DNA of 36,180 bases from a virus: the IMG/VR virus record IMGVR_UViG_3300046824_000128, positions 1-36,180 of that record; one strand, given 5' to 3'. The notes beneath the pieces are model-generated. The model was not told the origin of the DNA, did not search any database, and was given only the letters and a program-made list of their open reading frames with translations. Position numbers and translations under genes: made by a program. Positions 17,984 to 33,727 of the stretch are shown here, in pieces; the first letter of the stretch is position 1; each line of letters opens with the position of its first letter.

Positions 17984-18114
17984 CGGGGATCACTCGGAAG
18001 CCTGCCACAGAAGAAACGGCCCCACCGGGCAATCTTCACTTCTGATTGAAACTTCTGAACGTTCCGATACAACCGTATTGTGGGTTCCGAATGGTACCTA
18101 TCGGGGCAAGGCTG

Positions 18115-18549
18115 ATGCGCCCCCCGCCGGGCCTCGTCGCCGCGTGGTACGCGCGCCTGCCCAGGGGGAGCAACATCGAAGACGCGAGGGAGCGAATGAA
18201 GCCCGACGTCCTTCCGCAAGGCCACAACGGGGCGCACCGCCGGCTCGTATCGTTCGATGCGCTGGCGCGGGTGTCGTGTTCGGCGGAGAGCGCGAGTTCG
18301 ACGCTGGGCGCGGCGTCGTGGCGCATGCCGCGCGTGCCCGGCGTGCTGGACGTCCGGGGCGCAGGGCCGAGGGCGCGGCGGGGGCAGTTCCTGCGCCGGC
18401 TGACCCTGGGCCGCCAGCGCCGCATCTTGCGCATGCTCGCCGACGGCGCAACGGTGCGGCAGGTGTCGGCGGCGACGCGCTCGAACTTCACCGTCATCGC
18501 GGCTCTGCGCCGGGCCGCGCTCAGGTGGGAGGATCCCGACGATGAGTAA
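18115..18549 (+). CDS. Small LuxR/GerE-type HTH protein (candidate late-gene activator)
   Basis: C-terminal LTLGRQRRILRMLADGATVRQVSAATRSNFTVIAAL resembles a GerE/LuxR HTH. The start is uncertain (ATG 18091, 18115 or 18196). GC3 rises from about 18115, and GGGAG precedes 18196. Confidence 0.7.
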   Translation: MRPPPGLVAAWYARLPRGSNIEDARERMKPDVLPQGHNGAHRRLVSFDALARVSCSAESASSTLGAASWRMPRVPGVLDVRGAGPRARRGQFLRRLTLGRQRRILRMLADGATVRQVSAATRSNFTVIAALRRAALRWEDPDDE

Positions 18550-18772
18550 GAGCTATCGCGTCTACTTCAACCGCTGCGAGGACACGCCGCAGGTGTGGTC
18601 GGTCGACGAGGGCACCACCGCCAGCGAGATCAACGTGCTGGGCGTCGTGGTGAAGGTCGCCGGCGCCATGATCACCCGGCAGAACCTGGAGGCGGTCTAC
18701 CCTGAGCCAAAGGCGTGGTTCGAGGCCGAGGGCCAGCTGGCCATTCAGTATGGCGTGGCGGTGATCGAATGA
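18542..18772 (+). CDS. Hypothetical protein (76 aa)
   Basis: Full track ORF, plausible sequence, overlaps both neighbours. Confidence 0.8.
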   Translation: MSKSYRVYFNRCEDTPQVWSVDEGTTASEINVLGVVVKVAGAMITRQNLEAVYPEPKAWFEAEGQLAIQYGVAVIE

Positions 18773-19155
18773 GCGCCGCCGGTGCTCCTGCCGGCCCGGC
18801 CGCCCCGGCTGCTTTAGCCGTCAAGCAGCCGGGGCACCCGAACCTGTGGCGCGGCGGCTGGAAGAAGGGCCAGAGCGGCAACAAGCGGGGCGTGTCGCGG
18901 TATCAGACCCAGCTCACGCGCGCCATCCAGCGGCAGGAGCGACCGGCGCTGGTCTGCGGGGTCATCGAGGCGATGCGGAAGGCGGCCATGCGCGGCGGGA
19001 AGGTCGCCCCGGCCGCCGCCAAGGTCTATCTCGCCGCCGTGGGCCTCGACATGCGCCCGAAGACCGACCTCGAGGACGTGCTCGAGGCGATGCGGGGGGC
19101 GCCGCAGGAGGCGCTCGAGTGGTTCGTCGCGGTGAAGGGGAGGATGGGCGGATGA
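18769..19155 (+). CDS. terS: DUF5681-like protein, putative small terminase subunit (128 aa)
   Basis: WKKGQSGNKRG matches the F/W-x-KGQSGNP-x-G signature seen in small proteins upstream of terL. ATG 18769 in an ATGA overlap. Confidence 0.6.
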   Translation: MSAAGAPAGPAAPAALAVKQPGHPNLWRGGWKKGQSGNKRGVSRYQTQLTRAIQRQERPALVCGVIEAMRKAAMRGGKVAPAAAKVYLAAVGLDMRPKTDLEDVLEAMRGAPQEALEWFVAVKGRMGG

Positions 19156-19409
19156 GGTGCGAGTCGTGCAGCCCGCAACAGACGCAGTGCCACAAGGACC
19201 GCGGGCACTTCGATGAACATGTCGATTCCCTCGGCGTCGCGTGGCCGAACCCGGCGGACGGGAACATGATGACCAGACTTCTCATCGTCGCCGAGAGGAA
19301 CTGGCAGGTCGCCGAGGACGAAGGCTCCGAGCACCGAGAGGACCTGTTGTTGTTCCGCGATGTCCGCGACCGGCTTGGACTGCCGCGCACCGGGCCGGGG
19401 TTCCGATGA
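19152..19409 (+). CDS. Hypothetical protein (85 aa)
   Basis: ATG 19152 in an ATGA overlap. The upstream part of the track ORF is a shadow. Confidence 0.7.
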   Translation: MRCESCSPQQTQCHKDRGHFDEHVDSLGVAWPNPADGNMMTRLLIVAERNWQVAEDEGSEHREDLLLFRDVRDRLGLPRTGPGFR

Positions 19410-19669
19410 AACCCAGCGAGCAGATGGTGCGCGCCCTTCGACTCGGTGACAGCGGCTGGGCGCTGCTCGGCTGTCAGGTGCAGTTCGTGCCGATGGAGGA
19501 CGGCACCGTCGTCATCGGCGTGGTGGCGATCGGCGCGCGCGACAACACACTGGTCGGCAACGAGCCGCGCGGCGTGATGCTGCTCGAGCTCGGGCGCTTC
19601 AAGGCCGACGACATCGCGGGGGCGCTGGCGCAGGCTGACCAGGCGGCGCGGCCGGCGTTGAATGGGTGA
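19406..19669 (+). CDS. Hypothetical protein (87 aa)
   Basis: ATG 19406 in an ATGA overlap. Beta-rich sequence. Confidence 0.7.
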   Translation: MKPSEQMVRALRLGDSGWALLGCQVQFVPMEDGTVVIGVVAIGARDNTLVGNEPRGVMLLELGRFKADDIAGALAQADQAARPALNG

Positions 19670-19925
19670 GCGAGCCCACCAACCCAAGGTCTTCGGCATG
19701 TCATGCCGGCACTGCTCGAACAGGCTCAACGTGTTCGACGTCGGCGCGGGGGTCTTCTACGAGCTGCCCTGCGCGGTCCCCGGCTGCATGGATTCGCCGC
19801 CGGGCGACGCTTACCGGGTGATCACGCCGACAGGCGCCGAGACCTTCGACCGGGTTAAGAGCGCGCCGAGAGACTGGAGGTGGGAGCGCCGTGAGCGACC
19901 TTTCGGTCTGGCTGCGCGCCGCTGA
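19662..19925 (+). CDS. Small Zn-ribbon-like protein (87 aa; alternative start 19698)
   Basis: CRHCSN...CAVPGC. Overlaps both neighbours. Confidence 0.65.
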   Translation: MGERAHQPKVFGMSCRHCSNRLNVFDVGAGVFYELPCAVPGCMDSPPGDAYRVITPTGAETFDRVKSAPRDWRWERRERPFGLAARR

Positions 19926-21438
19926 GGTCGAGGCGCGCCGGCGCGCAGCGCTCCAGACGGTAGCCGAACGGCCAGCCTGGTCACTGGAGTCCTACGCCGC
20001 CGGGCACGACCACCAGCTCGCGGCGATGCGCGACCGGTCGAACTGGATTCACCTGCTGTGCGACAGACAGAGCGGCAAAACGTGGGCCGACCTGGGCGTC
20101 CTGCTCGACAACGCGCTGGCTCAGCCGAACAGCATCAACGTGTTTCTCGGGCTGGTGAGCACCGGCCTCACGCTTTCGGTCTGGCCGAAGTGGCAGCAGC
20201 TCCTCGACAAGCACGGCATCGACCGGCGTGACCGCGCCGACGAGAAGATGACCACGTTCCCGAACGGCGCGATCGTGGCGTTCGGCGGCACCGACGATCT
20301 CAAGAACGTCCGCAAGTACCTCGGCAACCGCCTGGATAACGCCGTCTTCATCGTCGACGAGTGCCAGGACCAGAGCACGGCGGTGCTCTCGTACATCCTC
20401 GACGTGCTGCTCGACCCCATGTGCACGCTGACGACGAGGGTCATCCTGAGCGGCGTTCTTCCTGACCTGCCGTTCGGGCTATTCCTCGACCTGGCGACGC
20501 TCGATGAGGACTCTCAGACCGGCGGCACCCCGGCATCACGGAAGTGGTCGCACCACAGCTGGGGCCGCCTCGACAATGTGCACACGCCCGAGGCAGCCGC
20601 TCGGCTGGCGCAGCTCGAGGCGGAGAAGGGCGTCAACCATCCGCAGCTGATGCGCGACTGGAAGGGCGTCAAGCGCGTGTGGAGCACGGCGGGCACCGGC
20701 TACCACTACTTGCGCGTCCGCAACGGCTACGTGCCCGAGGTGCCGGCGTGGCTCGAAGCGGAGCGGGTCAAGCTCGAGTCCCTCGGCGTGCCCATCGCGT
20801 CGTTGATGGCCGCCGTCCCGCACGCCGGCATCGCGCACGTGAGCGCCGCCATCGACCCAGGGGGGCGCGACCGAACCTCGCTGGTGGCCAACGGGTGGGG
20901 CACGGCCTCGAGCAAGGTGCAGGAGCTGTTCGAGTGGTCGACGCCGCGCAACTCGATCGCGAAGCTCTCACACATCGGCTACGTCGCGGGAATCGTGCAG
21001 CGCATCTTCGCCCCCGCGTGGTGGTTCTGGGACGGACCGGGCTCGCTGGAGATCGACACGTTCGCGCGCGACTACGGCATCCCCACCATCAAGGCGGCGA
21101 AGAAGGTCGACCGCGACGGGCAGGTCCGCCGCGTGAACGATCTGCTCGAGGATGCCCGGTATGAGGTCATGATCGGCGGCGCCGTCGAGGAGGACATGCT
21201 CAAGGCCGCCTGGGACAAGGACCTGCTCGCGCGCGGCATCCGCGAGTGGTCACGAGCCTGGCACCCGGACCCGGCCGAGTCCGCGCGCTACACGCTCGCC
21301 CCCTACTGGGACAGCTTCGTGCCGACCGACCCGCGCAGCCGAAACGAACGCGAGCGCGCGGCGTTCATGGCCGACGCGCCCGACGACGCCGACCGGCTGC
21401 CGCCCGACCCGCTCGCCGAGGTGCTGGGCTGGCGGTGA
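19891..21438 (+). CDS. terL: Terminase large subunit (515 aa)
   Basis: Walker A CDRQSGKTW, Walker B AVFIVDECQD, and a C-terminal nuclease-type AIDPGGRD. GTG start. Position is upstream of the portal. Confidence 0.9.
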   Translation: MSDLSVWLRAAEVEARRRAALQTVAERPAWSLESYAAGHDHQLAAMRDRSNWIHLLCDRQSGKTWADLGVLLDNALAQPNSINVFLGLVSTGLTLSVWPKWQQLLDKHGIDRRDRADEKMTTFPNGAIVAFGGTDDLKNVRKYLGNRLDNAVFIVDECQDQSTAVLSYILDVLLDPMCTLTTRVILSGVLPDLPFGLFLDLATLDEDSQTGGTPASRKWSHHSWGRLDNVHTPEAAARLAQLEAEKGVNHPQLMRDWKGVKRVWSTAGTGYHYLRVRNGYVPEVPAWLEAERVKLESLGVPIASLMAAVPHAGIAHVSAAIDPGGRDRTSLVANGWGTASSKVQELFEWSTPRNSIAKLSHIGYVAGIVQRIFAPAWWFWDGPGSLEIDTFARDYGIPTIKAAKKVDRDGQVRRVNDLLEDARYEVMIGGAVEEDMLKAAWDKDLLARGIREWSRAWHPDPAESARYTLAPYWDSFVPTDPRSRNERERAAFMADAPDDADRLPPDPLAEVLGWR

Positions 21439-21542
21439 CCGCACACGGTGCACAATCGGCGGTGCATCTCTGCGAGCTCCGCGAGCGTGAGTGGCCGGCC
21501 CTTGGCCGTCACCGCGATGCGGATCGCCGTCTCCAGCGTCAT
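21303..21542 (-). CDS. Possible small HTH-like protein (79 aa) whose 3' part is antisense to the terL 3' end
   Basis: The first ~35 codons fill the otherwise empty 21439-21542 gap with high GC3 (GRPLTLAELAEMHRRL). The remainder may be an antisense-frame artefact. No clear Shine-Dalgarno sequence. Confidence 0.35.
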   Translation of the reverse strand: MTLETAIRIAVTAKGRPLTLAELAEMHRRLCTVCGHRQPSTSASGSGGSRSASSGASAMNAARSRSFRLRGSVGTKLSQ

Positions 21543-21557
21543 GCACCGAGGTTAACA

Positions 21558-21576
21558 CCGCGGTAGCGAAATGCCC
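21558..21576 (+). promoter_or_regulatory. Conserved late-arm motif, copy 2 (CCGCGGTAGCGAAATGCCC)
   Basis: 19/19 identical to copy 1. It lies 8 nt upstream of ATG 21585, and no Shine-Dalgarno sequence is present. Confidence 0.55.
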
Positions 21577-21584
21577 TAGGCGAC

Positions 21585-21839
21585 ATGCCACGGGTGGGCA
21601 CGCAATCGCTCCTAAAGGTTCTGAACGCCGCCGGTGTGCGCCGTTACGTGCGCGAAGGTACCCGTATCGAGGTCGAGTTCTGGGCGCCACCTGGCGTTCA
21701 GGTCGAAACGACGCGCGAGGACCGGCGCGAGAAGTATCTCGAGGAGCGCCAGCGCAAGGACTTCGAGGGCAAGCAGCTGCGCGATCCGCTGGCGGTGGCA
21801 ACCGAGGATCTGACCATCGACGACGAGGGGACGAACTGA
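21585..21839 (+). CDS. Hypothetical protein (84 aa)
   Basis: Full track ORF with plausible charged/beta sequence. Confidence 0.8.
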   Translation: MPRVGTQSLLKVLNAAGVRRYVREGTRIEVEFWAPPGVQVETTREDRREKYLEERQRKDFEGKQLRDPLAVATEDLTIDDEGTN

Positions 21840-21840
21840 C

Positions 21841-22032
21841 ATGGCCAAAGCGAAGCAAGAGGAACACGGAGAGCACGGTCACGAGCACGGGCACGGGCAC
21901 GAACCGCCGGACCCGCCGGACCCCAGCAGGGACACGCTCAGGATCGCGCTGCGGCTGCGCGCCACCGAGCTGCAGTGGGATCCCGATGTGCTGCGGGAGT
22001 TCCTGGCCGACCTGGTCGACTTCATCGTCTGA
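21841..22032 (+). CDS. His-rich small protein (63 aa; EEHGEHGHEHGHGHE)
   Basis: Full track ORF, tightly packed between its neighbours. Confidence 0.75.
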   Translation: MAKAKQEEHGEHGHEHGHGHEPPDPPDPSRDTLRIALRLRATELQWDPDVLREFLADLVDFIV

Positions 22033-22370
22033 TGCCCGGCGCGCTCGCCTTCGCCCGGTCGATGTGGGACGCCCTGTTCGGCGCGCGTGACCGCCGCCGC
22101 CTGGGGAAGTTCCGCCCGCAGCGCATGAACCGCGCGCTGGCCGGATCGGCGAAGGCGGTGAAGGCCGAGCGCAAGCACTGGCACCGCGTCGACAACCGGG
22201 AGATCGTCTCGCTCGCCGACAAGGCGTGCCGCAAGTGCCGCGGCGGCGGGCTGCGGTTCACGCTGATCCGCCGCCGTCCGCGGGTCTGCCGCTGCGCGAT
22301 TCAGAGCTTCCAGCGCACGCACATCGGGCGCATCAAGCACCACGGCGCCAACGTGATGGTGCGATCGTGA
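22032..22370 (+). CDS. Basic Zn-binding-like protein (112 aa)
   Basis: ATG 22032 shares one nucleotide with the upstream TGA. CRKCRGGG...VCRC. Confidence 0.7.
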   Translation: MPGALAFARSMWDALFGARDRRRLGKFRPQRMNRALAGSAKAVKAERKHWHRVDNREIVSLADKACRKCRGGGLRFTLIRRRPRVCRCAIQSFQRTHIGRIKHHGANVMVRS

Positions 22371-22444
22371 TGCAGGTTGGGAAAGCGGCAATCCACTGGG
22401 CTCATAACCCTGGGACGCGGGTTCGATTCCCGCACCTGCTACCA
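22371..22444 (+). tRNA. tRNA-Met (anticodon CAT), 74 nt with encoded CCA; initiator-like features
   Basis: Hand fold. Acceptor TGCAGGT/ACCTGCT (6 bp, with a 1-72 U.U mismatch). D arm GGA..TCC with GG in the loop. Anticodon stem CTGGG/CCCTG with three G-C pairs next to the loop CTCATAA. 4-nt variable loop. T arm GCGGG-TTCGATT-CCCGC. Discriminator A, then CCA. Confidence 0.75.
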
Positions 22445-22458
22445 AACGAGCCGGGGCG

Positions 22459-24375
22459 ATGAGCATCAAGTCGCGCCTCGCGGCCGGCCTCGACGACGGC
22501 CCGCGCATCGGCTGGTGGGACAAGGAGGGCGACGACGCCGCGATGGCGCTCTACTCCCAGGGCACCGCGCTGGAGATCGCCGCCTACGGGCGCCGCTACC
22601 GGCAGGCGCTGCTCTACCGCCTGGTGACCGGCGACGATGCGCCCGAGATCTTCGGCTACTGGCTGTCGTCGCGGGTCGCCCCGTCGCTGGGCGGCCTGTC
22701 GCTGGCGAACTACGTCGAGCCCAGCATCAACGTCGTGGCGGCGGCGCTCGAGGTGTTCGAGAACCGCATCGGCACGCTGCGCCCCTTCGTGCAGGTGATC
22801 CCCAACGGCGGCAGCTTCGAGGTGCGCGACGCCTGCGGCCTCGCCGAGCGCTACGCCGACGCCCTGTTCGACCAGGTGCGCCTCTACGAGAAGACCCGGC
22901 TGTCCTTCCGCGACCGCGGGACCTGGGGCACCAGCTTCATGAAGGTCGTGCCCGACAGCGCGCGCAAGCAGGTCAGCATCGAGCGCGTGCTGATGGACGA
23001 GATCCTCATCGACAGCGCCGCGGCGACCAGGGGCGCGCCGAACAACCTGATCCAGCGCCGCTACATCTCGCGCAGCGAGGCCTTCGCCGACTTCGTCGAC
23101 ACCGCGCCCGCCAAGGAGCGCGACGGGCTGGCCTCGGCGGTGCGCCAGGCGCCGCCGGCGTTCATCGGAACGTTCTGGGCGGGCGCCGACCCCGACCCGA
23201 AGATCGCGCTGCTCGAGGGCTGGAAGCTCCCGCACGCCGACGGCGAGGGCGGGCGGCACATGCTGGCGCTCGCGAACAAGGTGATCTCGCGGCCCGACGA
23301 GCAGAAGTGGGACCGCCACCACTTCCCCTTCGCCGTGGCCCGCTGGCAGCAGCAGTCCCTCGGGTTCTGGGGCGGGTCGATGGCCTACGCGATGCTGCCC
23401 TACCAGCGCACCATCAACAAACACGTCGAGCGGCTCGAGGCGAACCTCGATCACCAGGCGTTCAGTGGCTGGCTCGTCGACCAGGGCGTGCAGATGAAGG
23501 CGGAGGCCTTCGGCGGGCGACCCGGTCGCATCCTTCGCAAGAACGGCGCCGGCAACGTCGTGCCCATCACGCCCGAGTCGAACGCGGGCGACGCCTATCA
23601 GGCGCTCGAGAGCTGGATCCAGCGCGCCTACCTGCGCGTCGGCCTGAACCAGCAGCAGATCGCCGGGCAGAAGCAACCGGGCCTGACCAGCGGTCAGGCG
23701 CTGCGCACGATGGTGCAGATCGAGGACTCCCGGAACAAGGGCCTGCAGATCACCGGCGAGATGGAGGTGCGCGACATCGCGGTGCTGGCGCTCGAGGCGG
23801 CCGAGGACATCAACCTGAAGCTCGAGCTGCCCGGCGTGAACGGGCGCACCGTCGCCTTTGCCGACCTGAAACTGAAGGAGAACGCGCGGAAGATCAGCGT
23901 GTTCCCGATCAACGCGCTGGTGAACGATCCCGAGGGCCGCCAGCAGCAGATCGCCGAGATGTACGCCGACGGCGATATCGACAAGCGCACGAAGATGCGC
24001 CTGCGCGAGATGCCCGACCTGCTGTCGTTCACGCAGCTGGCGACGGCGCCCGAAGATCTGATCGAGTCGCAGCTCGACGAGATCGTGCGCACCGGCAAGT
24101 ACCTCGCGCCCGAGCCGTTCGACGATCTGGCGACCGCGATGAACATGGCGCGCAACCGCTACTGGCTCGAGAAGCGGTTCAAGACGCCGGTGAAGACCCT
24201 GCGCCAGCTGCAGAGCTACATGACCGCGATCGCCGACATGATGACGACCGGCCAGCAGTTCATGCAGCCCCAGGCCGCCGCGCCGCAGGGGATGCAACCG
24301 CCCGCGGGCGCTCCCGCCGCGCCGCCGGTGCAGACGACGCCGAGCGCGGCCGCCCCCGCGCCGATGGCGGCCTGA
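22459..24375 (+). CDS. Portal protein (638 aa)
   Basis: Size, position between terL and scaffold/capsid, an acidic/helical core and a Gln/Pro/Ala-rich C-terminal tail. The overlapping 869-aa and 631-aa track ORFs are shadows. Confidence 0.8.
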   Translation: MSIKSRLAAGLDDGPRIGWWDKEGDDAAMALYSQGTALEIAAYGRRYRQALLYRLVTGDDAPEIFGYWLSSRVAPSLGGLSLANYVEPSINVVAAALEVFENRIGTLRPFVQVIPNGGSFEVRDACGLAERYADALFDQVRLYEKTRLSFRDRGTWGTSFMKVVPDSARKQVSIERVLMDEILIDSAAATRGAPNNLIQRRYISRSEAFADFVDTAPAKERDGLASAVRQAPPAFIGTFWAGADPDPKIALLEGWKLPHADGEGGRHMLALANKVISRPDEQKWDRHHFPFAVARWQQQSLGFWGGSMAYAMLPYQRTINKHVERLEANLDHQAFSGWLVDQGVQMKAEAFGGRPGRILRKNGAGNVVPITPESNAGDAYQALESWIQRAYLRVGLNQQQIAGQKQPGLTSGQALRTMVQIEDSRNKGLQITGEMEVRDIAVLALEAAEDINLKLELPGVNGRTVAFADLKLKENARKISVFPINALVNDPEGRQQQIAEMYADGDIDKRTKMRLREMPDLLSFTQLATAPEDLIESQLDEIVRTGKYLAPEPFDDLATAMNMARNRYWLEKRFKTPVKTLRQLQSYMTAIADMMTTGQQFMQPQAAAPQGMQPPAGAPAAPPVQTTPSAAAPAPMAA

Positions 24376-24378
24376 CGG

Positions 24379-24603
24379 TCAGCACTCGACAAACAGGTCG
24401 ATGGTGTCGTGCTTCTCGAGGGCATTCAGTAGGTCTGCGGCACCGTCCACCTTCGCCGCCCGGAGACCGCGCAGAAACGGCAGAGCCTCGGCGGTCAGCC
24501 TGCAGGGATATTCCCCGTATTCGTCCCTCAGCAGATCGCGAAGTTGGGCGTCGCCGACCGGTCTGCCCCCTCCGACGGGCTTCCAATAGAGCGTGCAGCT
24601 CAC
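24379..24603 (-). CDS. Hypothetical protein (74 aa), third gene of the opposite-strand cassette
   Basis: GTG 24603 in a GTGA overlap. High GC3. Its stop lies 3 nt from the portal stop, within the palindrome CTGACGGTCAG. Confidence 0.65.
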   Translation of the reverse strand: MSCTLYWKPVGGGRPVGDAQLRDLLRDEYGEYPCRLTAEALPFLRGLRAAKVDGAADLLNALEKHDTIDLFVEC

Positions 24604-24947
24604 GAGGGCTTGCTGCCGTCCGGGCGGAAGATCTTCCCCTGGATCCCGAGGTCGGCGAACGGCACGCGCCGCACCGGGATCCGGTGATGCTCGAGCGCCA
24701 TGTCGAGCATCATCACCGTCGGCGGCTCGAGACCGCGTTTTTCCGTCTCGACGATGAGCGCCGCAACCAGCTCCCGCGCCGCCTGGTTCTTCGCGATGTA
24801 CTTGACGACGTGGTCGACGGACGCCGCCAAAATGACCTCGCGTTCGGGCAGCGTGAAATCGGGGCGCAGCGCCTTCAACGCGCCCACGACCTCGCTCGTG
24901 AGCTGGCATCCCTCGATGTAGCTCGCGGGCGGTTTCGGCCCGCTCAC
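24600..24947 (-). CDS. Hypothetical protein (115 aa), second gene of the opposite-strand cassette
   Basis: GTG 24947 in a GTGA overlap. Plausible globular sequence. Confidence 0.7.
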   Translation of the reverse strand: MSGPKPPASYIEGCQLTSEVVGALKALRPDFTLPEREVILAASVDHVVKYIAKNQAARELVAALIVETEKRGLEPPTVMMLDMALEHHRIPVRRVPFADLGIQGKIFRPDGSKPS

Positions 24948-25318
24948 GACTGCGCCGCCTTGCGCGCGGCCACCTGCTCCTCGTAGCCGGCGACCGCGGC
25001 AGCATGGCCTTCGAGCGCTTCGGCGCGCGTCGGGTAGCGCCAGCACTCATCTCCGGTGCCCGGGTCGCCATGGAAGATCATCGTCTCGAACAGGAGCGGT
25101 GGCCCGTCGCCGAACTGGTGGTCGGTTCCGAGGAAGATGGTCGATACCCGCGTACCGTCGGCCAGCACCGTCTTCGCGACCGTGCGGCGGGCGATGTCCC
25201 CGAGAAAGGCCGCCCACTTGAAAAGGTCGGGGCAGGGCACGGGCTCGCCGGTCTCATCGAGGATGTACTGCAGGGTTCTCACTGCGGCCTCGTCCGGTCC
25301 TGCTCCCCGCTCGCCCAT
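24944..25318 (-). CDS. Hypothetical conserved-looking phage protein (124 aa; VSTIFLGTDHQFG..PLLFETMIF motif), first gene of the opposite-strand cassette
   Basis: Full track ORF. A promoter-like TTGAGC-N17-TACAAA ends 6 nt before the ATG. Confidence 0.8.
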   Translation of the reverse strand: MGERGAGPDEAAVRTLQYILDETGEPVPCPDLFKWAAFLGDIARRTVAKTVLADGTRVSTIFLGTDHQFGDGPPLLFETMIFHGDPGTGDECWRYPTRAEALEGHAAAVAGYEEQVAARKAAQS

Positions 25319-25324
25319 GCCGCC

Positions 25325-25353
25325 TTTGTATCATTCTCGCCCGCCGCGCTCAA
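25325..25353 (-). promoter_or_regulatory. Candidate promoter TTGAGC-N17-TACAAA for the cassette (leaderless geometry)
   Basis: Read on the minus strand in the 70-nt divergent gap 25319-25388. There are 6 nt between the -10 and ATG 25318. Confidence 0.4.
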
Positions 25354-25362
25354 TCGGACCGA

Positions 25363-25381
25363 CCGCGGTAGCGAAATGCCG
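25363..25381 (+). promoter_or_regulatory. Conserved late-arm motif, copy 3 (CCGCGGTAGCGAAATGCCG)
   Basis: 18/19 identical to copies 1 and 2. It lies 7 nt upstream of ATG 25389, with no Shine-Dalgarno sequence. Confidence 0.55.
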
Positions 25382-25388
25382 CCAATGA

Positions 25389-26366
25389 ATGGACACGTCC
25401 AGCGAAGGCACCGCACCTGCGACAAGTCCCGCGGCTGCCCCGGCGCCTGCCCCTGAGGCGGCGACCGGCGGCAGCTCGCCCGCGCCCGAAGCGGTCTCAC
25501 CCGACCAGCGCCGCGCCAAGAAGGACGCAATCATCAAGTCGGTGCGCGCCGCGGCGGCCAAGGCCTCGGGCGAGCCGGCGCCTGCCGAGCCCAAGCCCGC
25601 CGAGACGCCCGAGCCGAAGCCGGCGGAGACGCCGAAGCCGGCGGAGCCCGCGCCCGACGCGGCGCTGACCACGCGCTTGGCCGCGCTCGAGGCCGAGCTG
25701 AACGAGACGCGCGGCAAGCTCACCGAGCGAGAGAAGCAGCGCGCGGCCCCGACCGACGTCGAGGGCCTGCTCGATCTCATGGCGGACAACGCCGACCTGT
25801 CCATCGAGAAGCTGTCCGAGCTCTATCTCAAGCGCCAGGACAACCCGGCGCACAAGGAGCTCGGCGCCGCCGAGAAGCGCCTCGCCGCCATCGAAGCGAA
25901 GATCGCCGCCGGCGAGAAGGCCGAGAAAGATCGCGCCGAGAAGACGGCTCAGGAGGCGACGGCCGCCGAGGGCCGGAAGGCCATGCGCGGCATCCTGGAC
26001 GGCGACAAGGCCCGCTGGCCGCGCCTGACCCGCGACGAGCGGAACGCCACCGAGGCGATCCATGAAGCCGAGTCGAAGGCCGGTGACCGCGCGCGCGCGC
26101 TGATCGCCAAGGGCGGCAAGTTCACCGAGGAGCTGGGGCGGCAGATGGTCGCCGAGGCGCTCGACGAGATCGAGAAGGACCGCGCCGACCGCGCGACCCG
26201 TTACGCCATGCCCGACATCCCCGCCCGCCGCACCATCGGCGCCGGGAGCGGCAGCACCGGCACGATTCCGCAGTCCCGCGCCGAGACGGCCGAGCCGCTG
26301 TCTCGGGACCAGCGCAAGCGAGAGATCCTTGCCCGCGTTCGTGCGGGCCAACCCAAGACATCTTGA
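25389..26366 (+). CDS. Scaffolding protein candidate (325 aa)
   Basis: Position directly before the capsid gene. Ala/Glu/Lys-rich coiled-coil composition. N-terminal PAEP/KPAETP repeats. Confidence 0.65.
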   Translation: MDTSSEGTAPATSPAAAPAPAPEAATGGSSPAPEAVSPDQRRAKKDAIIKSVRAAAAKASGEPAPAEPKPAETPEPKPAETPKPAEPAPDAALTTRLAALEAELNETRGKLTEREKQRAAPTDVEGLLDLMADNADLSIEKLSELYLKRQDNPAHKELGAAEKRLAAIEAKIAAGEKAEKDRAEKTAQEATAAEGRKAMRGILDGDKARWPRLTRDERNATEAIHEAESKAGDRARALIAKGGKFTEELGRQMVAEALDEIEKDRADRATRYAMPDIPARRTIGAGSGSTGTIPQSRAETAEPLSRDQRKREILARVRAGQPKTS

Positions 26367-26376
26367 GGACACGACC

Positions 26377-27744
26377 ATGCACGGCCTGATCAACTTCCTT
26401 GGCACCCACTGGGCGGCGCTCGCCGTTCTGAGCTGCGCGCTCTACGCGCTCGTCCGATCGCTGCGGTTCGGCGCCAGCATCGGCGTCGCGCTCGCCTCGA
26501 TTCTGAACATCAGCGACAACAGCGCGGCGGCCCTCAAGGACTGGTACTCGATGGCCTACGAGGACGCGGCCTGGAGGGACAACGTGTTCCTCGGCCTCGT
26601 CGACAAGGAGACCGGCGGCGGTCAGCAGGTGATGCAGTCGATCAAGATCGGCCGCACCGCTGGCCACGGCGCCGACGTAACCCAGGCGATCGCCAACGCT
26701 TCGCCCGAGTCGCGCAGGAAGTTCATCACGCCGTGGGGCAAGTCCTACGCGATCGAGAACGTCGACAACACGGAGATCGACGTCTCGGGCGAGGACGAGG
26801 GCGCCATCGTGGAGCTGCTCGGCGACGCGATGGAAGGCTGCATGCGGAAGGTCTCCGAGGACCTCGAGTTCGATTGCTTCGGCGACGGCTTCGGCACCCG
26901 CGGCGTCATCGCCAGCCACACCGGCGCGGCCTCGCCGTTCACCCTGACGCTCTCCCAGGCCTCCGACACCATCAAGTGGAACGTCGGCGATATCGGCGTC
27001 AGCTCGGTGGCGAACAACAGCGCCGCGCTCGACACCGGCTCGTTCCTGGTCACGGCGATCGACACCGATGCCGGCACGATGACCGTCACCACGGCGAACG
27101 CCTGGGCGGGCGCCGCGAACGACGCGCACTTCATCTTCTTCGCCGCCGACAAGATCGCCGGCTCGTACGCGACGGCGCAGAAGGTCTACGGCCTCAAGCT
27201 GTGGATCCCGGTCACGGCGCCGGCGCCCGGCATCGACTCGACCGGCGTAGATCGCTCGGTCGACCCGAACAAGCTGGCCGGCGTGCGGTTCGACTGCCGC
27301 GGCCTCGACCCCAAGCAGGCGGTCAACGCGCTGGTCACGCAGATCTGCGTGAACCGCAGCGCGCGCCCCGACGCCATCTTTTTCAACCCGGTGAACTACG
27401 CCGCCTACGAGGACTCGCTGCAGAACCAGGCGGTCTATGTCAAGACGCGCGGCACCGGCGAGGCGGCGACGGCCTACTACGAGGGCATCAAGCACATGGG
27501 GCCCAAGGGTCCGGTCACGGTCTACTCGGCGCCCGGCTGCGACACCGATCGCTTCTACGCCTGCACCATGTCGAGCTGGATCCTGCGCGCGCCGCAGAAC
27601 AAGGCGATCCGCATGGCGGGCCGCGCTGGCAAGGACGGCCTCATCGACGGCTACAACGGCGACTACGTCCAGATCCGCATGAAGTACGCCGCGAACCTCT
27701 CGTGCAGCTTCCCCGGCGCGAACGGCGTGGGCCGGCTGGCGTAA
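26377..27744 (+). CDS. Major capsid protein (455 aa; P22-coat-like/HK97-fold by position and C-terminal resemblance)
   Basis: GAGGA Shine-Dalgarno before ATG 26377. Size and position fit. The C-terminus ..FPGANGVGRLA is reminiscent of the P22 coat end. High GC3 from the first codon. Confidence 0.8.
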   Translation: MHGLINFLGTHWAALAVLSCALYALVRSLRFGASIGVALASILNISDNSAAALKDWYSMAYEDAAWRDNVFLGLVDKETGGGQQVMQSIKIGRTAGHGADVTQAIANASPESRRKFITPWGKSYAIENVDNTEIDVSGEDEGAIVELLGDAMEGCMRKVSEDLEFDCFGDGFGTRGVIASHTGAASPFTLTLSQASDTIKWNVGDIGVSSVANNSAALDTGSFLVTAIDTDAGTMTVTTANAWAGAANDAHFIFFAADKIAGSYATAQKVYGLKLWIPVTAPAPGIDSTGVDRSVDPNKLAGVRFDCRGLDPKQAVNALVTQICVNRSARPDAIFFNPVNYAAYEDSLQNQAVYVKTRGTGEAATAYYEGIKHMGPKGPVTVYSAPGCDTDRFYACTMSSWILRAPQNKAIRMAGRAGKDGLIDGYNGDYVQIRMKYAANLSCSFPGANGVGRLA

Positions 27745-27777
27745 TCACCGGGCGCGAGCCCCCAGAAAGGAACCACG

Positions 27778-28209
27778 ATGGCCAGCCCGATGTCCTACCA
27801 GGCCCGCTCTCCCGAGGCGGGCATCCAGATCTTGAGCCTGCAGTTCCTGGTAGGCACAACCGGCGCGGTCGGCGCCATCCAGGGGCCGGGCGGCTCGCGC
27901 ATGAAGGAGTTTCGGCGCATCACGGCGGCGAACCCGTCGCCGGTGGTGCGCACGGGCGCGGGCGTCTACGACGTGTTCCTGCGCGAGACCTGGCTGGCGC
28001 TGATCGCCGGCTTCGGGTCCTGCATCGGCGCGGTCGGGGCGACGGCGGGCGCGGCGGGCAAGATCACCAGCAGCATCACCAGCGTGGCCGTCTCGCCGCC
28101 GAAGGTGACCATGACGTTCATTCGCATCGACACCGGTGTCGCCGCCGATCCGCAGCTCAACGACGTCGCCTGCATCACGCTGATCCTCAAGAACCTGCGA
28201 CCGGTGTAA
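27778..28209 (+). CDS. Small beta-rich virion protein (143 aa), possible decoration or head-proximal protein
   Basis: AAAGGAA Shine-Dalgarno. Full track ORF. Sits in the structural block. Confidence 0.75.
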   Translation: MASPMSYQARSPEAGIQILSLQFLVGTTGAVGAIQGPGGSRMKEFRRITAANPSPVVRTGAGVYDVFLRETWLALIAGFGSCIGAVGATAGAAGKITSSITSVAVSPPKVTMTFIRIDTGVAADPQLNDVACITLILKNLRPV

Positions 28210-28215
28210 CCGCCA

Positions 28216-29304
28216 ATGGGCAAGACGCTGCCCCAGCTGGTCGCGGTGGTTCGGCAGAAGTCGAACACCGACGGCGTGGCTGGCGGCAACCAGGTCGTGA
28301 GCGACGTCGAGCTGGCCGGCTACATCAACGAGTCGGTGAAAGCGCTCTACGACCTGCTGATCGGCGTGGACTCGAGCTACTACGAGTCGCCCTACAGCTT
28401 CACGCTGGCGAGCTCGGCGACCGGCAACGCCGCCCCCCTGCCGCCCGACTTCTACAAGGAGCGCGGCCTGGTGCTGTTCCCCGACACCGAGCGCGAGACG
28501 CCGGTGTTCTTCGTGCCCTTCGCCGAGCGGACGCGGGGCAAGCTCGGCGCCACGCTCGACGGCAACAGCGTGCGGGTCTACCCGTGGCAGCTGGCGGGGC
28601 AGGGTCCCTGGCGGCTCTACTACACGCCGAAGTGCAAGACGTTCGACGGCGACTTCCAGGTGCGACTCGTGTCGGGCATCGGCGGGCCGGGCGACGGGAC
28701 GTCGGGAGACACGCTGCCTCCCGCCCTCAACAGCGGACCACTGTCCGGCGTCGGTTTCACCCTGACAGCCACGGGGAACGGGGCGCTCACGGTCGACAGC
28801 GTGGCGGTGAATGTCGGCGATCGCATCCTGGTCACCAACAGCGACAGCAACAACCAGGACCCGTTCAGCAACGGCATCTATCTGTGCACCAATCCGGGCA
28901 GCACGACCAGCCCGTGGGTCCTGGTCCGCGCGACCGACTACGACACGGTCCAGGAAGTGGTCATCAACAGCACCGTGAGCGCCGCCGCGGGCGCCGTCGG
29001 CGCCGGGTTCCTCTACAAGCTGACGACGTTCACGTTCTTCCCGGCGCCCATCCTGTACACGCTGCAGCCGCAGCCGGCGCTCGACGTGACGCTCGACAAC
29101 TTCGACGAGTACATCACGAACCGCGCGGCGATGATGATCTACTCGAAGCGCCAGATGGACCCCGGCAGCATCGCCGGGCTGTTCCAGATGGCCGAGCAGC
29201 GCGTGAAGTCGATGGCGACGATGCGCATCGCCGAGCCTGAGCAGGCGCCGGTGCTCTGGCGCAGCGGGCGGAGGTACGCGCGCTACCACGACGATCTGGC
29301 GTGA
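28216..29304 (+). CDS. Virion structural protein (362 aa), head-tail adaptor candidate with an inserted beta domain
   Basis: Position after the capsid gene. N- and C-terminal helical parts flank a VGDRILV...NGIYLCT...W.LVRATDYD segment, which resembles a domain seen in phage fiber/tail proteins. Confidence 0.75.
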   Translation: MGKTLPQLVAVVRQKSNTDGVAGGNQVVSDVELAGYINESVKALYDLLIGVDSSYYESPYSFTLASSATGNAAPLPPDFYKERGLVLFPDTERETPVFFVPFAERTRGKLGATLDGNSVRVYPWQLAGQGPWRLYYTPKCKTFDGDFQVRLVSGIGGPGDGTSGDTLPPALNSGPLSGVGFTLTATGNGALTVDSVAVNVGDRILVTNSDSNNQDPFSNGIYLCTNPGSTTSPWVLVRATDYDTVQEVVINSTVSAAAGAVGAGFLYKLTTFTFFPAPILYTLQPQPALDVTLDNFDEYITNRAAMMIYSKRQMDPGSIAGLFQMAEQRVKSMATMRIAEPEQAPVLWRSGRRYARYHDDLA

Positions 29305-29305
29305 C

Positions 29306-29770
29306 ATGCCGGCGCTGCAGCACGGCTTCACCGTCGAGCCCACCGAAGACGTCAACCTGAATCGGCTCCAGCAGCGGGTCAAGCTGGCGCTCGACAAGCT
29401 GGCCGCCCTCGCCACGGTGTCGCAGCTCGCCGACAAGGGGTGTTTCATCCTGGTCGGAGCCCAAAACCTGCAGAACCAGAAACGGGGCGCAGACGTCGTC
29501 GCGGGCAGCGCCATCGCCACCCGGCAGGGCTATCAGCATCTGACCGGCGCGACGGCGGTCAACTACATCAACATCTCCGACTGGTTCGACGGCGCGCGCG
29601 TCGATCTGTTCATCGTCAACGGCCTGACATTCAACCACAACGCGGGCGCGCCGCCGGCGGGGGCGTACGCGCTGCAGATGCTCTCGGGCGCGAACACCGC
29701 GAAGGCCGCCAACTCGGTGATCTCGTTTCGGCGCGACGATGCGTTGAAGAGATGGCTTCAGGTGCAATAG
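29306..29770 (+). CDS. Virion structural protein (154 aa), tail-proximal
   Basis: Full track ORF, 1 nt after the upstream stop. Confidence 0.75.
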   Translation: MPALQHGFTVEPTEDVNLNRLQQRVKLALDKLAALATVSQLADKGCFILVGAQNLQNQKRGADVVAGSAIATRQGYQHLTGATAVNYINISDWFDGARVDLFIVNGLTFNHNAGAPPAGAYALQMLSGANTAKAANSVISFRRDDALKRWLQVQ

Positions 29771-29779
29771 GATCAAATC

Positions 29780-32700
29780 ATGGCGCAGCCTCTACAGTCA
29801 GCGACGCTCGACGTTCCGCTCGCCCCGCTCAACCAGCACGCCACGAAGACCGGCGGGCCGGTGGGGCGCATCAAGAAGATGCTCAACGCGGTGGTCAAGA
29901 AGATCACCAGCACCGCGCCGACCGCGCAGGCCGCGGCAACCGCGGAGTTGCGGGTCGAGAAGCGCGACGGCTTCGCCTCGTTGCCGTCGACTGTACGCGA
30001 TCCGGCGACGGGCGCCATTTCGAGCAAGACGCTGGTGGGCCCGACGCTGTTCGGCACCTATGGCGCGCAGCTGATCGCCATCTTCCTGGCCGCGCCGTTC
30101 GTGCTCAGCGAGGCCGCGGCCTGCTGGGAATCGCCGACCTACAACGCGCCGACGCGGGTGCTGCGAGCCAACGGGATCTACAACGGCTCAACGATATCGG
30201 CCACGCCGGACGAGGCGCGCATCGGAACGCGAACGCTCTACGCCTGGTCAGACCTCGGCGCAGGTGGCCTTTACCTGACGATGGTGATGGTCATTGACGA
30301 CGACGGAACGATCATTCGTCAACCGTTCTCGGTCGATGCCGTTCGGCGCGTGCGCGCGTGCGCAGACGGGACGCAGTTCTGGGTCATCTGGGACACCGGC
30401 GCCGGCGGCATCCAGACGAACGCCTATGACACGAACGGGAACTTTCTGGGCACCGGATCGGTGGCCAGCTCCGGGACAGGCTACTTCGATGTCACCCTGA
30501 ACACGGCTTCAGCCAATTCGATCGTGATGTTGCAAAAAGATCCGGCCTCGGGCGGGGTCAAGTTTGCTCGCTTTACGTGGAACGGGGCCACGGTGACGGT
30601 CTTTCAGCAGGTGCCATTCACGATCAACAACAGCGTAGGTCGTGACGCCTTTCTGACGAACGACCGCGGAGACCATGCGTTTCACATCGTGACCGTCGAT
30701 GGCACCGGTCCGTTTACAACCTACGTGACCGTGATAGCTGACTCCACGCTGACGCTGCTGGCGGGGTCGTTCGTGGTCAAGACGGGCGATGCGGTGGCGC
30801 CGGTCGAGGCGTCTGGATTCGTGGCGCCGACGGGAAACGCCGATTACGTGATTGGGCTTTCGTACCTCAACGCGACCCCGACGCCGCAACTCAACTCCAC
30901 GTTGGTATATGCGGTTACCGCCGCAGGGGTATCGACGCTCAAGCGCACTCAGATCTCCCTCACGCTCGCCTCGCGCGCCTTTCGCATGCAGGTGGGCGGC
31001 GACTACTACGCGGTCGGCTATTACCACAGCAACCCCGCCGGGTTCACGTCGATCTCCCAGTCGACCTACTTCCTGATGGACTTCGGCACCGGCTACCAGG
31101 TCACTGGGCGCTTTGAATTCGGAACCGCTTACCAGGACTGGCTCACGACCGCCGATACGACGCGGTACATGTACGTCTCGACGCCGCAGGTCGACCCAAA
31201 CGGCGGCATTCACATGGCGCTCGCCTACCGCGCCTCCTCGACGATCGCCGTCACGACGACGGGCGACACGTTCACGCCCACCAAGACGCTGGTCGACGTC
31301 GTGGGCATCAAGGACTATTCATTCGGTCCTGACAACGGCCAGTCGGTCGAGCACAGCGCGGCGCTGTTCCTTCCCGGTCCAGAGACGGTCAACTACACCG
31401 GCGCGACGTTCGCCGAGGACGGCATCGGCCTCATCCCCGAGGTGACGGCGATCGCCACCGCGGGCGGCGGATCGCTCGCGGGCACGTACGAATACGTGGT
31501 CTGTGACGAGTGGACCGACAACAACGGCCAGCGCGTTCGCTCGCCGTCGGGCGTGCCGGTTTCGATCACGGTATCGGCGGCGCAGGTACAGTTGACCGGC
31601 CTGCACAACCACGTCACGCGCAAATCGAACATGACGCACGCGATTTACCGCACGGTCATCAAGGGCGGCGTGCAGACCACCGAGCACTACAAGGTCTCAG
31701 GCTCGCTCCAGGGCGGGGCGTTCCTCGGCAGCGTGGTCGTGAACGACGACGCTGCCCAGACCTGGACCTTCGTCGACAACATGATCGACTCGGTGGCCTC
31801 GAACAACGAGGTGCTGTACACCGACAAGGGCCTGCTCGACCACTTCCCCGCGCCGCCGTTCAGCGTGGGCCTGGCGACCTTCGACCGCATCTTCGTCGCG
31901 GGCTACGACGGCGCCATCTGGTTTTCCGGCGCGAAGACCGAGGGCGACGCCTTCTGGTACCACCCTGGGCAGCGCATCCCGCTGCCGACGCAAGAAGAGG
32001 TGCGGTCGATCCGCATGCTCGACGACATGATCGTCGTGCTCTGCTCGGGCGACACCGTCTTCGCCATCCCGAACGGCCCGTGGCCCGATGCGACCGGGCA
32101 AGGCGCCTTCCCCGCGCCGCGCGTGCTGCCCTTTAGCAACGGCTGCACCGGGTTCGCCGAGACCATCAGCGATGGGATCATCTACTCGGCGACCCAGGGC
32201 GGGATCTGGCTCATCACCCGGGACTTCCAGAATCGCTTCATCGGGGCGCCGATAGAGGACGAGAAGGCCAGCTTCGACACCTTCGCCGGCGTGGCAACCG
32301 ACGATCGCCAGCGCACCGTGTTCCTGACCGCCGGCGGCAACATGCTGGTCTACGACCAGGTGACCGGCGTGTGGGGCAACTGGCTGACGTCGCCCTTGCC
32401 GAGGATGCTGACGGTGCACAAGGGTCGGATCGCGTACATCCCCGTCAGCGGCCCCCCCCTGCGGCAGGTGCTGGGGCAATACTTCGACGGGAACGGGAAC
32501 CAGATCATCACGTCTGTGCGGATCCGCGTCGCGCCGGGGGGGATCCGTCGGTACAAACGCCTGTGGCAGGTGCAGATGGTCGGCGAGTGGCTGGGCGACC
32601 ACGACATGACGGTGCTGGTCTACATGGACGATAGCCCAACCTTCACCTTCACCGCCTCGCAGCGCTGGACGCCCGATAGCGCCGTGCCCTACATCTACGA

Positions 32701-32869
32701 GCTGCCGGCGAACGCCCAAACCGAGATGTGTGGGGCCGTCGAATACTCTTTCCATGACGAATTCCCCCGCGGCCCCAGCCAGGGCTTCGCGCTCGAGGCG
32801 CTCTCGCTGCAGATCGGCCTCGGCGATCGCTCGAAGGATCTCCCGGCCTCCCGCCGCATCGGTATCTGA
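29780..32869 (+). CDS. Large tail protein (1029 aa), nozzle/tail-tube-B-like or tail hub
   Basis: Largest ORF. Beta-rich. Its position between adaptor-like and internal virion proteins matches podovirus (T7/P22-like) gene order. Confidence 0.8.
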   Translation: MAQPLQSATLDVPLAPLNQHATKTGGPVGRIKKMLNAVVKKITSTAPTAQAAATAELRVEKRDGFASLPSTVRDPATGAISSKTLVGPTLFGTYGAQLIAIFLAAPFVLSEAAACWESPTYNAPTRVLRANGIYNGSTISATPDEARIGTRTLYAWSDLGAGGLYLTMVMVIDDDGTIIRQPFSVDAVRRVRACADGTQFWVIWDTGAGGIQTNAYDTNGNFLGTGSVASSGTGYFDVTLNTASANSIVMLQKDPASGGVKFARFTWNGATVTVFQQVPFTINNSVGRDAFLTNDRGDHAFHIVTVDGTGPFTTYVTVIADSTLTLLAGSFVVKTGDAVAPVEASGFVAPTGNADYVIGLSYLNATPTPQLNSTLVYAVTAAGVSTLKRTQISLTLASRAFRMQVGGDYYAVGYYHSNPAGFTSISQSTYFLMDFGTGYQVTGRFEFGTAYQDWLTTADTTRYMYVSTPQVDPNGGIHMALAYRASSTIAVTTTGDTFTPTKTLVDVVGIKDYSFGPDNGQSVEHSAALFLPGPETVNYTGATFAEDGIGLIPEVTAIATAGGGSLAGTYEYVVCDEWTDNNGQRVRSPSGVPVSITVSAAQVQLTGLHNHVTRKSNMTHAIYRTVIKGGVQTTEHYKVSGSLQGGAFLGSVVVNDDAAQTWTFVDNMIDSVASNNEVLYTDKGLLDHFPAPPFSVGLATFDRIFVAGYDGAIWFSGAKTEGDAFWYHPGQRIPLPTQEEVRSIRMLDDMIVVLCSGDTVFAIPNGPWPDATGQGAFPAPRVLPFSNGCTGFAETISDGIIYSATQGGIWLITRDFQNRFIGAPIEDEKASFDTFAGVATDDRQRTVFLTAGGNMLVYDQVTGVWGNWLTSPLPRMLTVHKGRIAYIPVSGPPLRQVLGQYFDGNGNQIITSVRIRVAPGGIRRYKRLWQVQMVGEWLGDHDMTVLVYMDDSPTFTFTASQRWTPDSAVPYIYELPANAQTEMCGAVEYSFHDEFPRGPSQGFALEALSLQIGLGDRSKDLPASRRIGI

Positions 32870-32886
32870 GCCGGGCGGGTGAATTA

Positions 32887-32898
32887 GCGGAAAACCGC
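32887..32898 (+). terminator. Small hairpin GCGG-AAAA-CCGC after the 1029-aa gene (weak terminator/processing candidate)
   Basis: Alternative pairing GGGCGG(32873-32878)/CCGCCC(32895-32900). No U tract. Confidence 0.25.
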
Positions 32899-32908
32899 CC
32901 GCCAACTG

Positions 32909-32927
32909 CCGCGGTAACGGAATGCCC
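32909..32927 (+). promoter_or_regulatory. Conserved late-arm motif, copy 4 (CCGCGGTAACGGAATGCCC)
   Basis: 17/19 identical to copy 1. It lies 17 nt upstream of ATG 32945, with cGAGGG at the same offset as in copy 1. Confidence 0.5.
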
Positions 32928-32944
32928 ATGGCGAGGGGACAGCC

Positions 32945-33727
32945 ATGGGCGACTGGAACAGTCTGCGGGACAACCCGATCAGCAACTTCTTCGTGGGCGC
33001 CCCGCCGCCGAAACAGCCGGGCGTCGGCAACACGTCGACGCATAGCCTGCACAAGGATCCGGCGACGGGGATGTACTACGACCCGACGACGGGCACGACC
33101 TTCACCGATCAGTATGGGCAGAACCCGGTCACCGACCCGAACGTCGCCCAGCAGGTGGCGGCGAACTTCTCGGCCAGCCGGCAGTTCCTGACCAACCTGG
33201 CCAACGTCCAGGGGCAGGAGGGCCAGCTCGCCGGGAATCTCCGGTCGCTGATCCAGGGCGGCCAGCCGAGCGCGGCCGAGATGCAGGTCCAGGGCGACAT
33301 GAACAACATCGCCCAGCAGCAAATGTCGAACGCCGCCGGCGTGAGCGGCGCCGGCAGCCCGCTGGCGCAGCTGCTGGCGAACCGGAACACCGCCAACGCC
33401 CAGATCCAGGCGACCAACGCCGGCGGCATCGCGCGCGCGAACGAGCTCACCGGCGCCCGCGGCGCGCTCGCCCAGCTCCTCGGCGGCATGGCGGGCCAGA
33501 ACCTCGGCGGGGCGGGTGAGTTCGCCGGCCTCGCCTCCAGCGGCCAGGCCGGGCAGCAGGGGATGGACGATGCCACGGCGAAAGCTAACCAGGACTTCGC
33601 GCTGAAGCTCGGGACCGCCGTGTTCGGCGGCGGCGCGGGCGCGGGCGGTGCTCCCGCTGCCGGCGGTGCTGGTGGCGGCGGCCGCGGCTACAGCGCTGGC
33701 CTGCCGCTCGGCGCCGGCGGGATCTGA
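32945..33727 (+). CDS. Gly/Ala/Gln-rich internal virion (ejection-type) protein (260 aa)
   Basis: Low-complexity composition and position after the tail hub. GAGGGG Shine-Dalgarno. Confidence 0.75.
   Translation: MGDWNSLRDNPISNFFVGAPPPKQPGVGNTSTHSLHKDPATGMYYDPTTGTTFTDQYGQNPVTDPNVAQQVAANFSASRQFLTNLANVQGQEGQLAGNLRSLIQGGQPSAAEMQVQGDMNNIAQQQMSNAAGVSGAGSPLAQLLANRNTANAQIQATNAGGIARANELTGARGALAQLLGGMAGQNLGGAGEFAGLASSGQAGQQGMDDATAKANQDFALKLGTAVFGGGAGAGGAPAAGGAGGGGRGYSAGLPLGAGGI

Follow-up and report, generated by a model that had tools for sequence, protein, structure and literature searches.

At positions 24379-25318 of the viral DNA recorded as IMGVR_UViG_3300046824_000128 in IMG/VR lies a block of three minus-strand genes, here designated A, B and C (Table 1). 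The whole 36,180-nucleotide (nt) stretch that was analyzed is referred to as the window. The block occupies the space between a portal gene and a scaffold-like gene, and is the sole minus-strand block inside a plus-strand late region that extends from 18046 to 35178 and wraps round to the window start. A first-pass annotation of the window had described three opposite-strand genes of 124, 115 and 74 amino acids (aa), joined by GTGA overlaps and interrupting the order portal-scaffold-capsid. The list of open reading frames (ORFs) and the sequence agree exactly with the gene sizes; the portal gene, the scaffold-like gene (assigned by position and composition) and the major head protein gene flank the block as claimed. 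Both internal junctions read TCGTGAGC, in which the downstream GTG start overlaps the upstream TGA stop by 4 nt. In this study, comparison with sibling phages and with distant homologs favored a reading, to which we assign a probability of about 0.65, in which independent accessory genes form a moron-like array within a variable, reverse-oriented portal-scaffold slot of a novel temperate phage.

Table 1. Features of the three-gene block and its surroundings, in window coordinates.
Feature	Position	Strand	Description
Gene A	24944-25318	-	124 aa, ATG start
Gene B	24600-24947	-	115 aa, GTG start
Gene C	24379-24603	-	74 aa, GTG start
Convergent stop codons	24372-24382	.	Portal TGA (24373-24375) and gene C stop (24379-24381, TCA on the plus strand), reading CTGACGGTCAG
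Divergent intergenic region	25319-25388	.	70 bp, between gene A and the scaffold-like gene
Portal gene	22459-24375	+	Left flank; Pfam Head-tail_con and SU10_portal; phrog_332
Scaffold-like gene	25389-26366	+	Right flank; assigned by position and Ala/Glu/Lys-rich composition only; G+C at third codon position 0.90
Major head protein gene	26377-27744	+	phrog_9953; follows the scaffold-like gene
tRNA-Met (CAT) gene	22371-22444	+	Between the gene for a 112-aa protein and the portal gene

A, B and C are real coding genes. The G+C content (GC) at codon positions 1/2/3 was.71/.52/.84 in A,.68/.43/.905 in B and.71/.45/.76 in C, a pattern shared with the flanking genes (.67/.46/.97 in the portal gene), and the frame-specific signal at the third position (GC3) switched exactly at the borders of the three genes. 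The ratio of nonsynonymous to synonymous substitution rates (dN/dS) against sibling phages was 0.49 for A, 0.35-0.42 for B and 0.20-0.27 for C, all below 1; at similar dS, the portal gene gave a lower value of 0.06-0.08. Homologs of each of the three genes exist elsewhere. The GC3 pattern, the dN/dS values of 0.2-0.5 and the homologs thus indicate that the genes are real and constrained. GC-rich DNA produces many long false ORFs, and dozens appear in the ORF list of the window; the three frames could in principle be chance openings antisense to a long portal-scaffold spacer. Given the GC3 switch at the gene borders, dN/dS below 1, homolog families of 154, 59 and 4 members, and confident structure models, the likelihood of this is practically negligible. 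Overall GC was 0.69 for A, 0.67 for B and 0.64 for C, against 0.69 for the genome; the base composition of A and B is typical of the phage. Gene C was lower than its neighbors in both GC and GC3 (GC3 of 0.76, against a genome value of about 0.9), which would be expected of a recently acquired gene.

Phages with 98.9% identical portal proteins differ in the content of the slot, which changes by whole-gene gain and loss at gene junctions. The window phage carries A-B-C, the sibling phage L001 carries A'-X-B'-portal without C, and the sibling L101 carries ...B-C-portal; the 98.9% amino acid identity of the portal applies to the window phage against both siblings. In a blastn comparison of the window with L001, gene X (L001 558-794) was missing from the window and gene C (window 24384-24606) was missing from L001, and both gene-sized breakpoints fell at stop/start junctions reading TCRTGAGC. 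C and X are therefore each absent between the same flanks in a close relative, which is the mark of an accessory insertion. In 13 contigs that share an identical 112-aa protein encoded upstream, the slot took only two forms, A-B-C and A-X-B. Gene X (L001 540-800, plus strand) lies between A and B, encodes an acidic protein of 86 aa (MSGPKPGFRIKHVWAFIALD...), shares its first six codons with B (MSGPKP), and had no PHROG match. The TCRTGAGC sequence is not clearly enriched in the window: it was found 8 times against 3.7±2.1 expected, and 3 of 100 shuffles reached 8. A search round the cassette for repeats resembling att sites or transposon ends returned chance-level repeats only.

These comparisons support the view of the cassette as accessory and non-structural, inserted into an order of head genes. 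Its site between the portal and scaffold genes might instead point to a service in virion assembly or DNA packaging, performed from the other strand by head-assembly chaperones or decoration factors. This is very improbable: the three genes lie on the strand opposite every other late gene, their content varies between phages with nearly the same portal, plasmids and non-structural arrays of small genes carry A-family members, and none of the three matched a head or tail PHROG.

The first-pass annotation had proposed that the trio forms one system and had asked whether homologs travel together. Co-occurrence was examined at 85 A-family loci from viral contigs and metagenomes, with B and C searched by tblastn within 4 kb. 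A homolog of B or C was found near the A-family gene at none of the 85 loci, the search returning noise only; gene X, a member of another small phage family, was present at 3 of them. Clustering of the neighboring ORFs at the same loci yielded no family present in more than 6 of the 85. Where relatives of C were found at 58-60% identity, the surroundings were unrelated small-gene arrays lacking both A and B; elsewhere, B-family members sit among small overlapping genes, in arrays that have neither A nor C. Homologs of the three thus essentially never co-occurred outside the immediate sibling phages, and the trio does not travel together. The adjacency of partners in unrelated genomes by which toxin-antitoxin modules are recognized was likewise absent (0/85 A loci; B and C found alone). 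Comparison of the A, B and C families by hhalign gave probabilities below 1%, indicating no relationship between them. The three proteins, all small and soluble, are unrelated in evolution, and each family is differently distributed.

It is consequently improbable that A, B and C make up one multi-component system, whether for prophage defense or superinfection immunity, for anti-defense, or of a toxin-antitoxin-like kind. Tight GTGA coupling and a single upstream region would suit such a system, as would the reverse orientation among the late genes of a temperate phage and an A-B-C arrangement that is identical across many samples; small prophage-expressed defense sets also have a precedent in the defense reported for genes 30-31 of Sbash (PMC6426596). 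The A-X-B order of L001 without C, the lack of B or C near any of the other A-family genes, and the solitary occurrence of the B and C families all run counter to it, as do the database searches described below. Judged from these comparisons, the cassette appears not to be a three-component defense or toxin-antitoxin system; its genes behave as phage morons or accessory arrays would, rather than as a co-evolving multi-protein system.

When A, B and C were scanned against Pfam, PHROGs, NCBIfam and PADLOC (defense models from PADLOC-DB v2), no match was obtained at E<=1. Pfam scans of the wider families, with 104 members for A and 59 for B, returned scattered chance matches only, and so did a PHROG scan of the 104 A members. 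Pfam, NCBIfam, PADLOC and hydropathy revealed no toxin domain, no DNA-binding antitoxin domain and no membrane domain in the three proteins. The conventional Kyte-Doolittle threshold for a membrane-spanning segment is about 1.6; the maximum 19-residue hydropathy was 0.57-0.78 for A, B and C, indicating soluble proteins without a membrane segment. By hydropathy, none of them showed the transmembrane segment or signal peptide expected of membrane-anchored superinfection exclusion. A and C are acidic, and the protein of gene A has an isoelectric point of 4.7. For A and B, confident AlphaFold2 models were obtained and Foldseek searches of the PDB found no fold match, including none to a solved anti-defense structure.

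Protein A belongs to a large family. The first-pass annotation had linked a signature VSTIFLGTDHQFG..PLLFETMIF in the first protein to uncharacterized phage and prophage proteins; this signature is real, and forms the core of a large uncharacterized phage family in which the motif VSTVFLGxDHQFGDGPPLLFETMxF is very strongly conserved. Residues T60, P74, E78, T79 and H105 are invariant, and W35, R45, S59, D66, H67, D71, R94 and T97 are near-invariant. The polar cluster among them (S59, T60, D66, H67, D71, E78, T79, R94, T97 and H105) suggests a ligand-, metal- or target-binding site. The AlphaFold2 model of A (predicted local distance difference test score, pLDDT, 90.7; predicted template modeling score 0.80) shows an antiparallel sheet and a long C-terminal helix. 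In Foldseek, it had no match in the PDB (best E=1, template modeling score, TM, <0.3), and in BFVD it retrieved uncharacterized family members only; single-sequence and profile searches of the PDB with A found nothing, and a literature search for the motif strings found no papers.

Homologs of A formed 154 clusters in a word-indexed search, and the family was found at no fewer than 535 loci on viral contigs in IMG/VR, at 119 loci in genomes of many phyla, and in 19 plasmid records, including plasmids of Aeromonas caviae and cyanobacteria and Pseudomonas megaplasmids. It also extends to chromosomes from Nitrospirota to Streptomyces. The family is also present in isolated phages of 109-209 kb infecting Pseudomonas, Rhizobium, Mesorhizobium and Dolichospermum; in the two that were inspected, the A homolog lay inside long runs of small hypothetical genes. 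On the Aeromonas plasmid, the homolog lies downstream of a helix-turn-helix (HTH) regulator. At least 19 Nitrospirales genomes or metagenome-assembled genomes (L155-L194, match at about 3001-3201) carry a family member of about 104 aa that is about 50% identical to A; within 3 kb of it, no conserved neighbor was found at the 19 loci, any one neighbor being shared by at most 4. A metagenome-assembled genome of the archaeon Nitrosotalea (L159) also matched A, and one family member (P0044) carries a C-terminal zinc ribbon. In the window, a Cys-rich early protein of 217 aa (..CWVCG..; 12747-13400, minus strand) is represented at 5 of the 85 viral loci by homologs that lie about 1.3 kb upstream of the A-family gene, a nearness that probably just reflects a shared early-region neighborhood.

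Protein B had only 2 matches in the word-indexed search, yet 59 representatives at E<=1e-3 in an exhaustive HMMER search, 13 of them at E<=1e-10. The family alignment is too diverse for a pattern scan. About one-tenth of the representatives (P0130, P0150, P0152, P0160, P0168 and P0182) have an N-terminal extension of about 90 aa that contains CxxC..CxxC and resembles a zinc ribbon. The AlphaFold2 model of B (pLDDT 94.4) is mostly helical with two short strands, and its best PDB match in Foldseek had E=0.22 and TM<0.32. A relationship to 4-oxalocrotonate tautomerase was considered, as residues 74-109 of B aligned weakly with 6vvm_A, of similar length, at E=0.055 in a single-sequence search. It was rejected: neither a family profile search of the PDB nor the Foldseek top 50 contained a tautomerase, and B, which begins MSGPKP, has no N-terminal catalytic proline.

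The C family is rare. It has conserved termini (MSCTLYWKPV...EC), and its homologs were P0124 (92-93% identity), P0125 (60%) and one in L104 (58%), with no others. The 58% homolog in L104 (1713-2450) is divergent from an ORF with an HTH-like C-terminus; this position, seen in a single example, is one that the leading gene of a regulated operon typically takes. Neither B nor C had a tblastn match among isolated phages, B had none among plasmids, and close-relative scans of IMG/VR for B and C found none.

The ends of the cassette were examined next to the portal and scaffold-like genes. The first-pass annotation had placed the cassette end 3 nt from the portal stop, inside a palindrome. The distance is correct. 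The supposed palindrome, CTGACGGTCAG, is merely the two convergent stops, TGA-CGG-TCA, flanked on either side by one complementary base; with a center of only 1 nt, no hairpin can form. No terminator was predicted on either strand between 24000 and 25800. In L001, the junction after gene B reads GCTGACCGTCAGG, which matches the arrangement of the portal and C stops. Since no terminator separates gene C from the convergent portal gene, transcription of the cassette and of the late operon should interfere with each other.

Upstream of gene A, the divergent 70-bp region is about 98% identical in the siblings L001/L002 (one mismatch by eye), versus about 87% for the coding DNA of the cassette, which argues for some function of the intergenic region. 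Its minus strand contains a candidate sigma-70-like element, TTGAGC (25353-25348), N17, TGaTACAAA, whose -10 (25330-25325) ends 6 nt before the ATG at 25318. Of the promoter-like element with leaderless geometry that had been reported, the element itself is present but weak, with 8 of 12 consensus positions and 0 sites in a formal promoter scan of 24000-25800. The leaderless geometry is not a conserved feature, because ATG 25318 is absent from L001, whose gene A begins 12 codons inward (MRTLQYIL...), at the equivalent of window GTG 25282. Most A-family members, like L001, support this start. GTG 25282 is preceded by GAGG and would give a 112-aa A protein; the first 12 residues counted from ATG 25318 were poorly modeled. 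The claim of independent transcription holds insofar as the cassette, being oriented against the late genes, needs a promoter of its own; it is probably independently transcribed, although the promoter scan named no site for it.

These observations are consistent with the following scheme. A single short operon transcript, started in the conserved divergent region, would cover A, B and C, and their translation would be coupled. Expression would occur mainly while the late genes are off, in lysogeny or early infection, and would be silenced late. Each protein might then work singly in the cytoplasm, modulating the host or competing elements (in counter-defense or host takeover, for instance), although confidence in this last step is low. 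With similarly low confidence, A appears to be the best candidate for such a modulator, given its occurrence in temperate and large isolated phages of dissimilar gene content, on plasmids and in many phyla, and its invariant polar cluster. A more specific version is possible but doubtful: A would be a widespread mobile-element family with a new fold, whose polar Ser/Thr-Asp-His-Asp-Glu-Thr-Arg-His site neutralizes a conserved host function such as an immune signal or a defense protein, B would be a second factor of this type, and the slot would be a swappable counter-defense locus.

The genes might also individually protect the lysogen by excluding or aborting incoming phages, as classical lysogenic-conversion morons that do not serve the phage's own infection. 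The temperate gene content, the orientation opposite the late operon with its conserved upstream region, the gene-by-gene turnover, the raised dN/dS typical of arms-race genes, and the atypical composition of gene C would all fit this explanation. We nevertheless regard it as rather unlikely. The A family is found in the small-gene arrays of isolated phages of 109-209 kb and on plasmids, which makes a role restricted to lysogeny unlikely for A; the three proteins also lack the membrane segments that many exclusion proteins have, and matched no known defense model.

The reading of the block as an array of independent accessory genes can be compared with three known situations. Phage morons are reportedly additional genes between conserved late genes of temperate phages, described for HK97 and HK022 and reviewed under the heading "the moron comes of age". 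C and X resemble morons in that one phage has them and a close relative lacks them between the same flanks, and A, B and C in that they are small, non-structural genes inside the head-gene cluster of a temperate phage, with an atypical composition in C. The differences are that three coupled opposite-strand genes are found here instead of a single same-strand insertion, that no terminator was predicted, that the promoter match is weak, and that the composition of A and B is phage-like. Small accessory-gene arrays in phage early regions and on plasmids often contain anti-defense or host-takeover genes. The A homologs elsewhere resemble these in lying in same-strand runs of small overlapping hypothetical genes, sometimes beside HTH regulators or integrases, and in being small, acidic, soluble proteins spread over many kinds of mobile element. 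In contrast, the window genes lie within a late structural operon on the opposite strand, and A and B show no fold match to a solved anti-defense protein. Finally, mycobacteriophage Sbash is reported to have a defense attributed to its genes 30 and 31 (PMC6426596). The likeness lies in a small gene set of a temperate phage that could plausibly be on while the lytic genes are off; such sets vary between related phages. In contrast, A, B and C do not co-occur outside the siblings and show no PADLOC similarity, and large isolated phages and plasmids also carry A-family members. The Sbash genes provide a fair analogy to the overall locus; a joint mechanism was not supported by the co-occurrence test.

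Several points weigh against the accessory-array reading. The phage-like composition of A and B and the lack of a predicted terminator mean that two classical moron hallmarks are missing or weak. The promoter-like element agrees only partly with the consensus and escaped the formal scan; the promoter rules of the host may differ. A and B are adjacent or nearly so in both siblings that show both, and B and C are adjacent in two phages; A, B and C may thus be functionally linked within this phage lineage. The functional guess itself is weak, resting on distribution, size, charge and conservation without homology or a fold match.

As a "system", then, the locus is ordinary: it is a variable moron-type slot, and no comparative evidence links its genes functionally. 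It neatly illustrates how phages with near-identical structural genes exchange cassette content one gene at a time at 8-nt stop/start junctions. The locus also draws attention to two uncharacterized families, A and B, with confident predicted structures and no solved-fold match. Family A, which is abundant and has an invariant polar site, is a reasonable target for counter-defense or host-takeover screens.

The surrounding genes place the cassette in an apparently new phage lineage. The portal gene matched Pfam Head-tail_con at 2.9e-8 (33 bits, against a cut-off of 27) and SU10_portal at 8.6e-7, and the gene of the terminase large subunit (phrog_2) lies upstream of it. The scaffold-like gene had no match in the Pfam or PHROG scans. 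Searches by tblastn with the portal and terminase against 50,697 isolated phage records found no match, and a portal scan of the genome collection together with a close-relative scan of IMG/VR found no relative, in keeping with a lineage that appears to be new. The early and lysogeny genes lie on the minus strand and include a tyrosine integrase (PF00589), an excisionase-like HTH_17 protein and an HTH repressor-like protein; by this gene content, the integrase and HTH_17 protein in particular, the phage is temperate. The identity of window positions 1-127 with 36054-36180 shows that assembly had closed the sequence into a circle of about 36,053 bp. The window has no host flanks and probably represents an entire phage genome, captured in a free or circular state and not as an integrated prophage. 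The window phage and L001 differ by several gene-sized insertions or deletions beyond the cassette as well. L001 lacks the tRNA-Met gene, so that its portal gene and the gene for the 112-aa protein overlap by 4 nt, and it has an additional 98-aa gene after the terminase gene. The GC of the window is about 69%. A stretch of 63-65% GC at the end of the tail-gene region encodes a GDSL-like lipase/acylhydrolase of 362 aa (PF13472, 1.9e-13; 2891-3979, plus strand), which may be a tail-associated enzyme that modifies surface polysaccharide.

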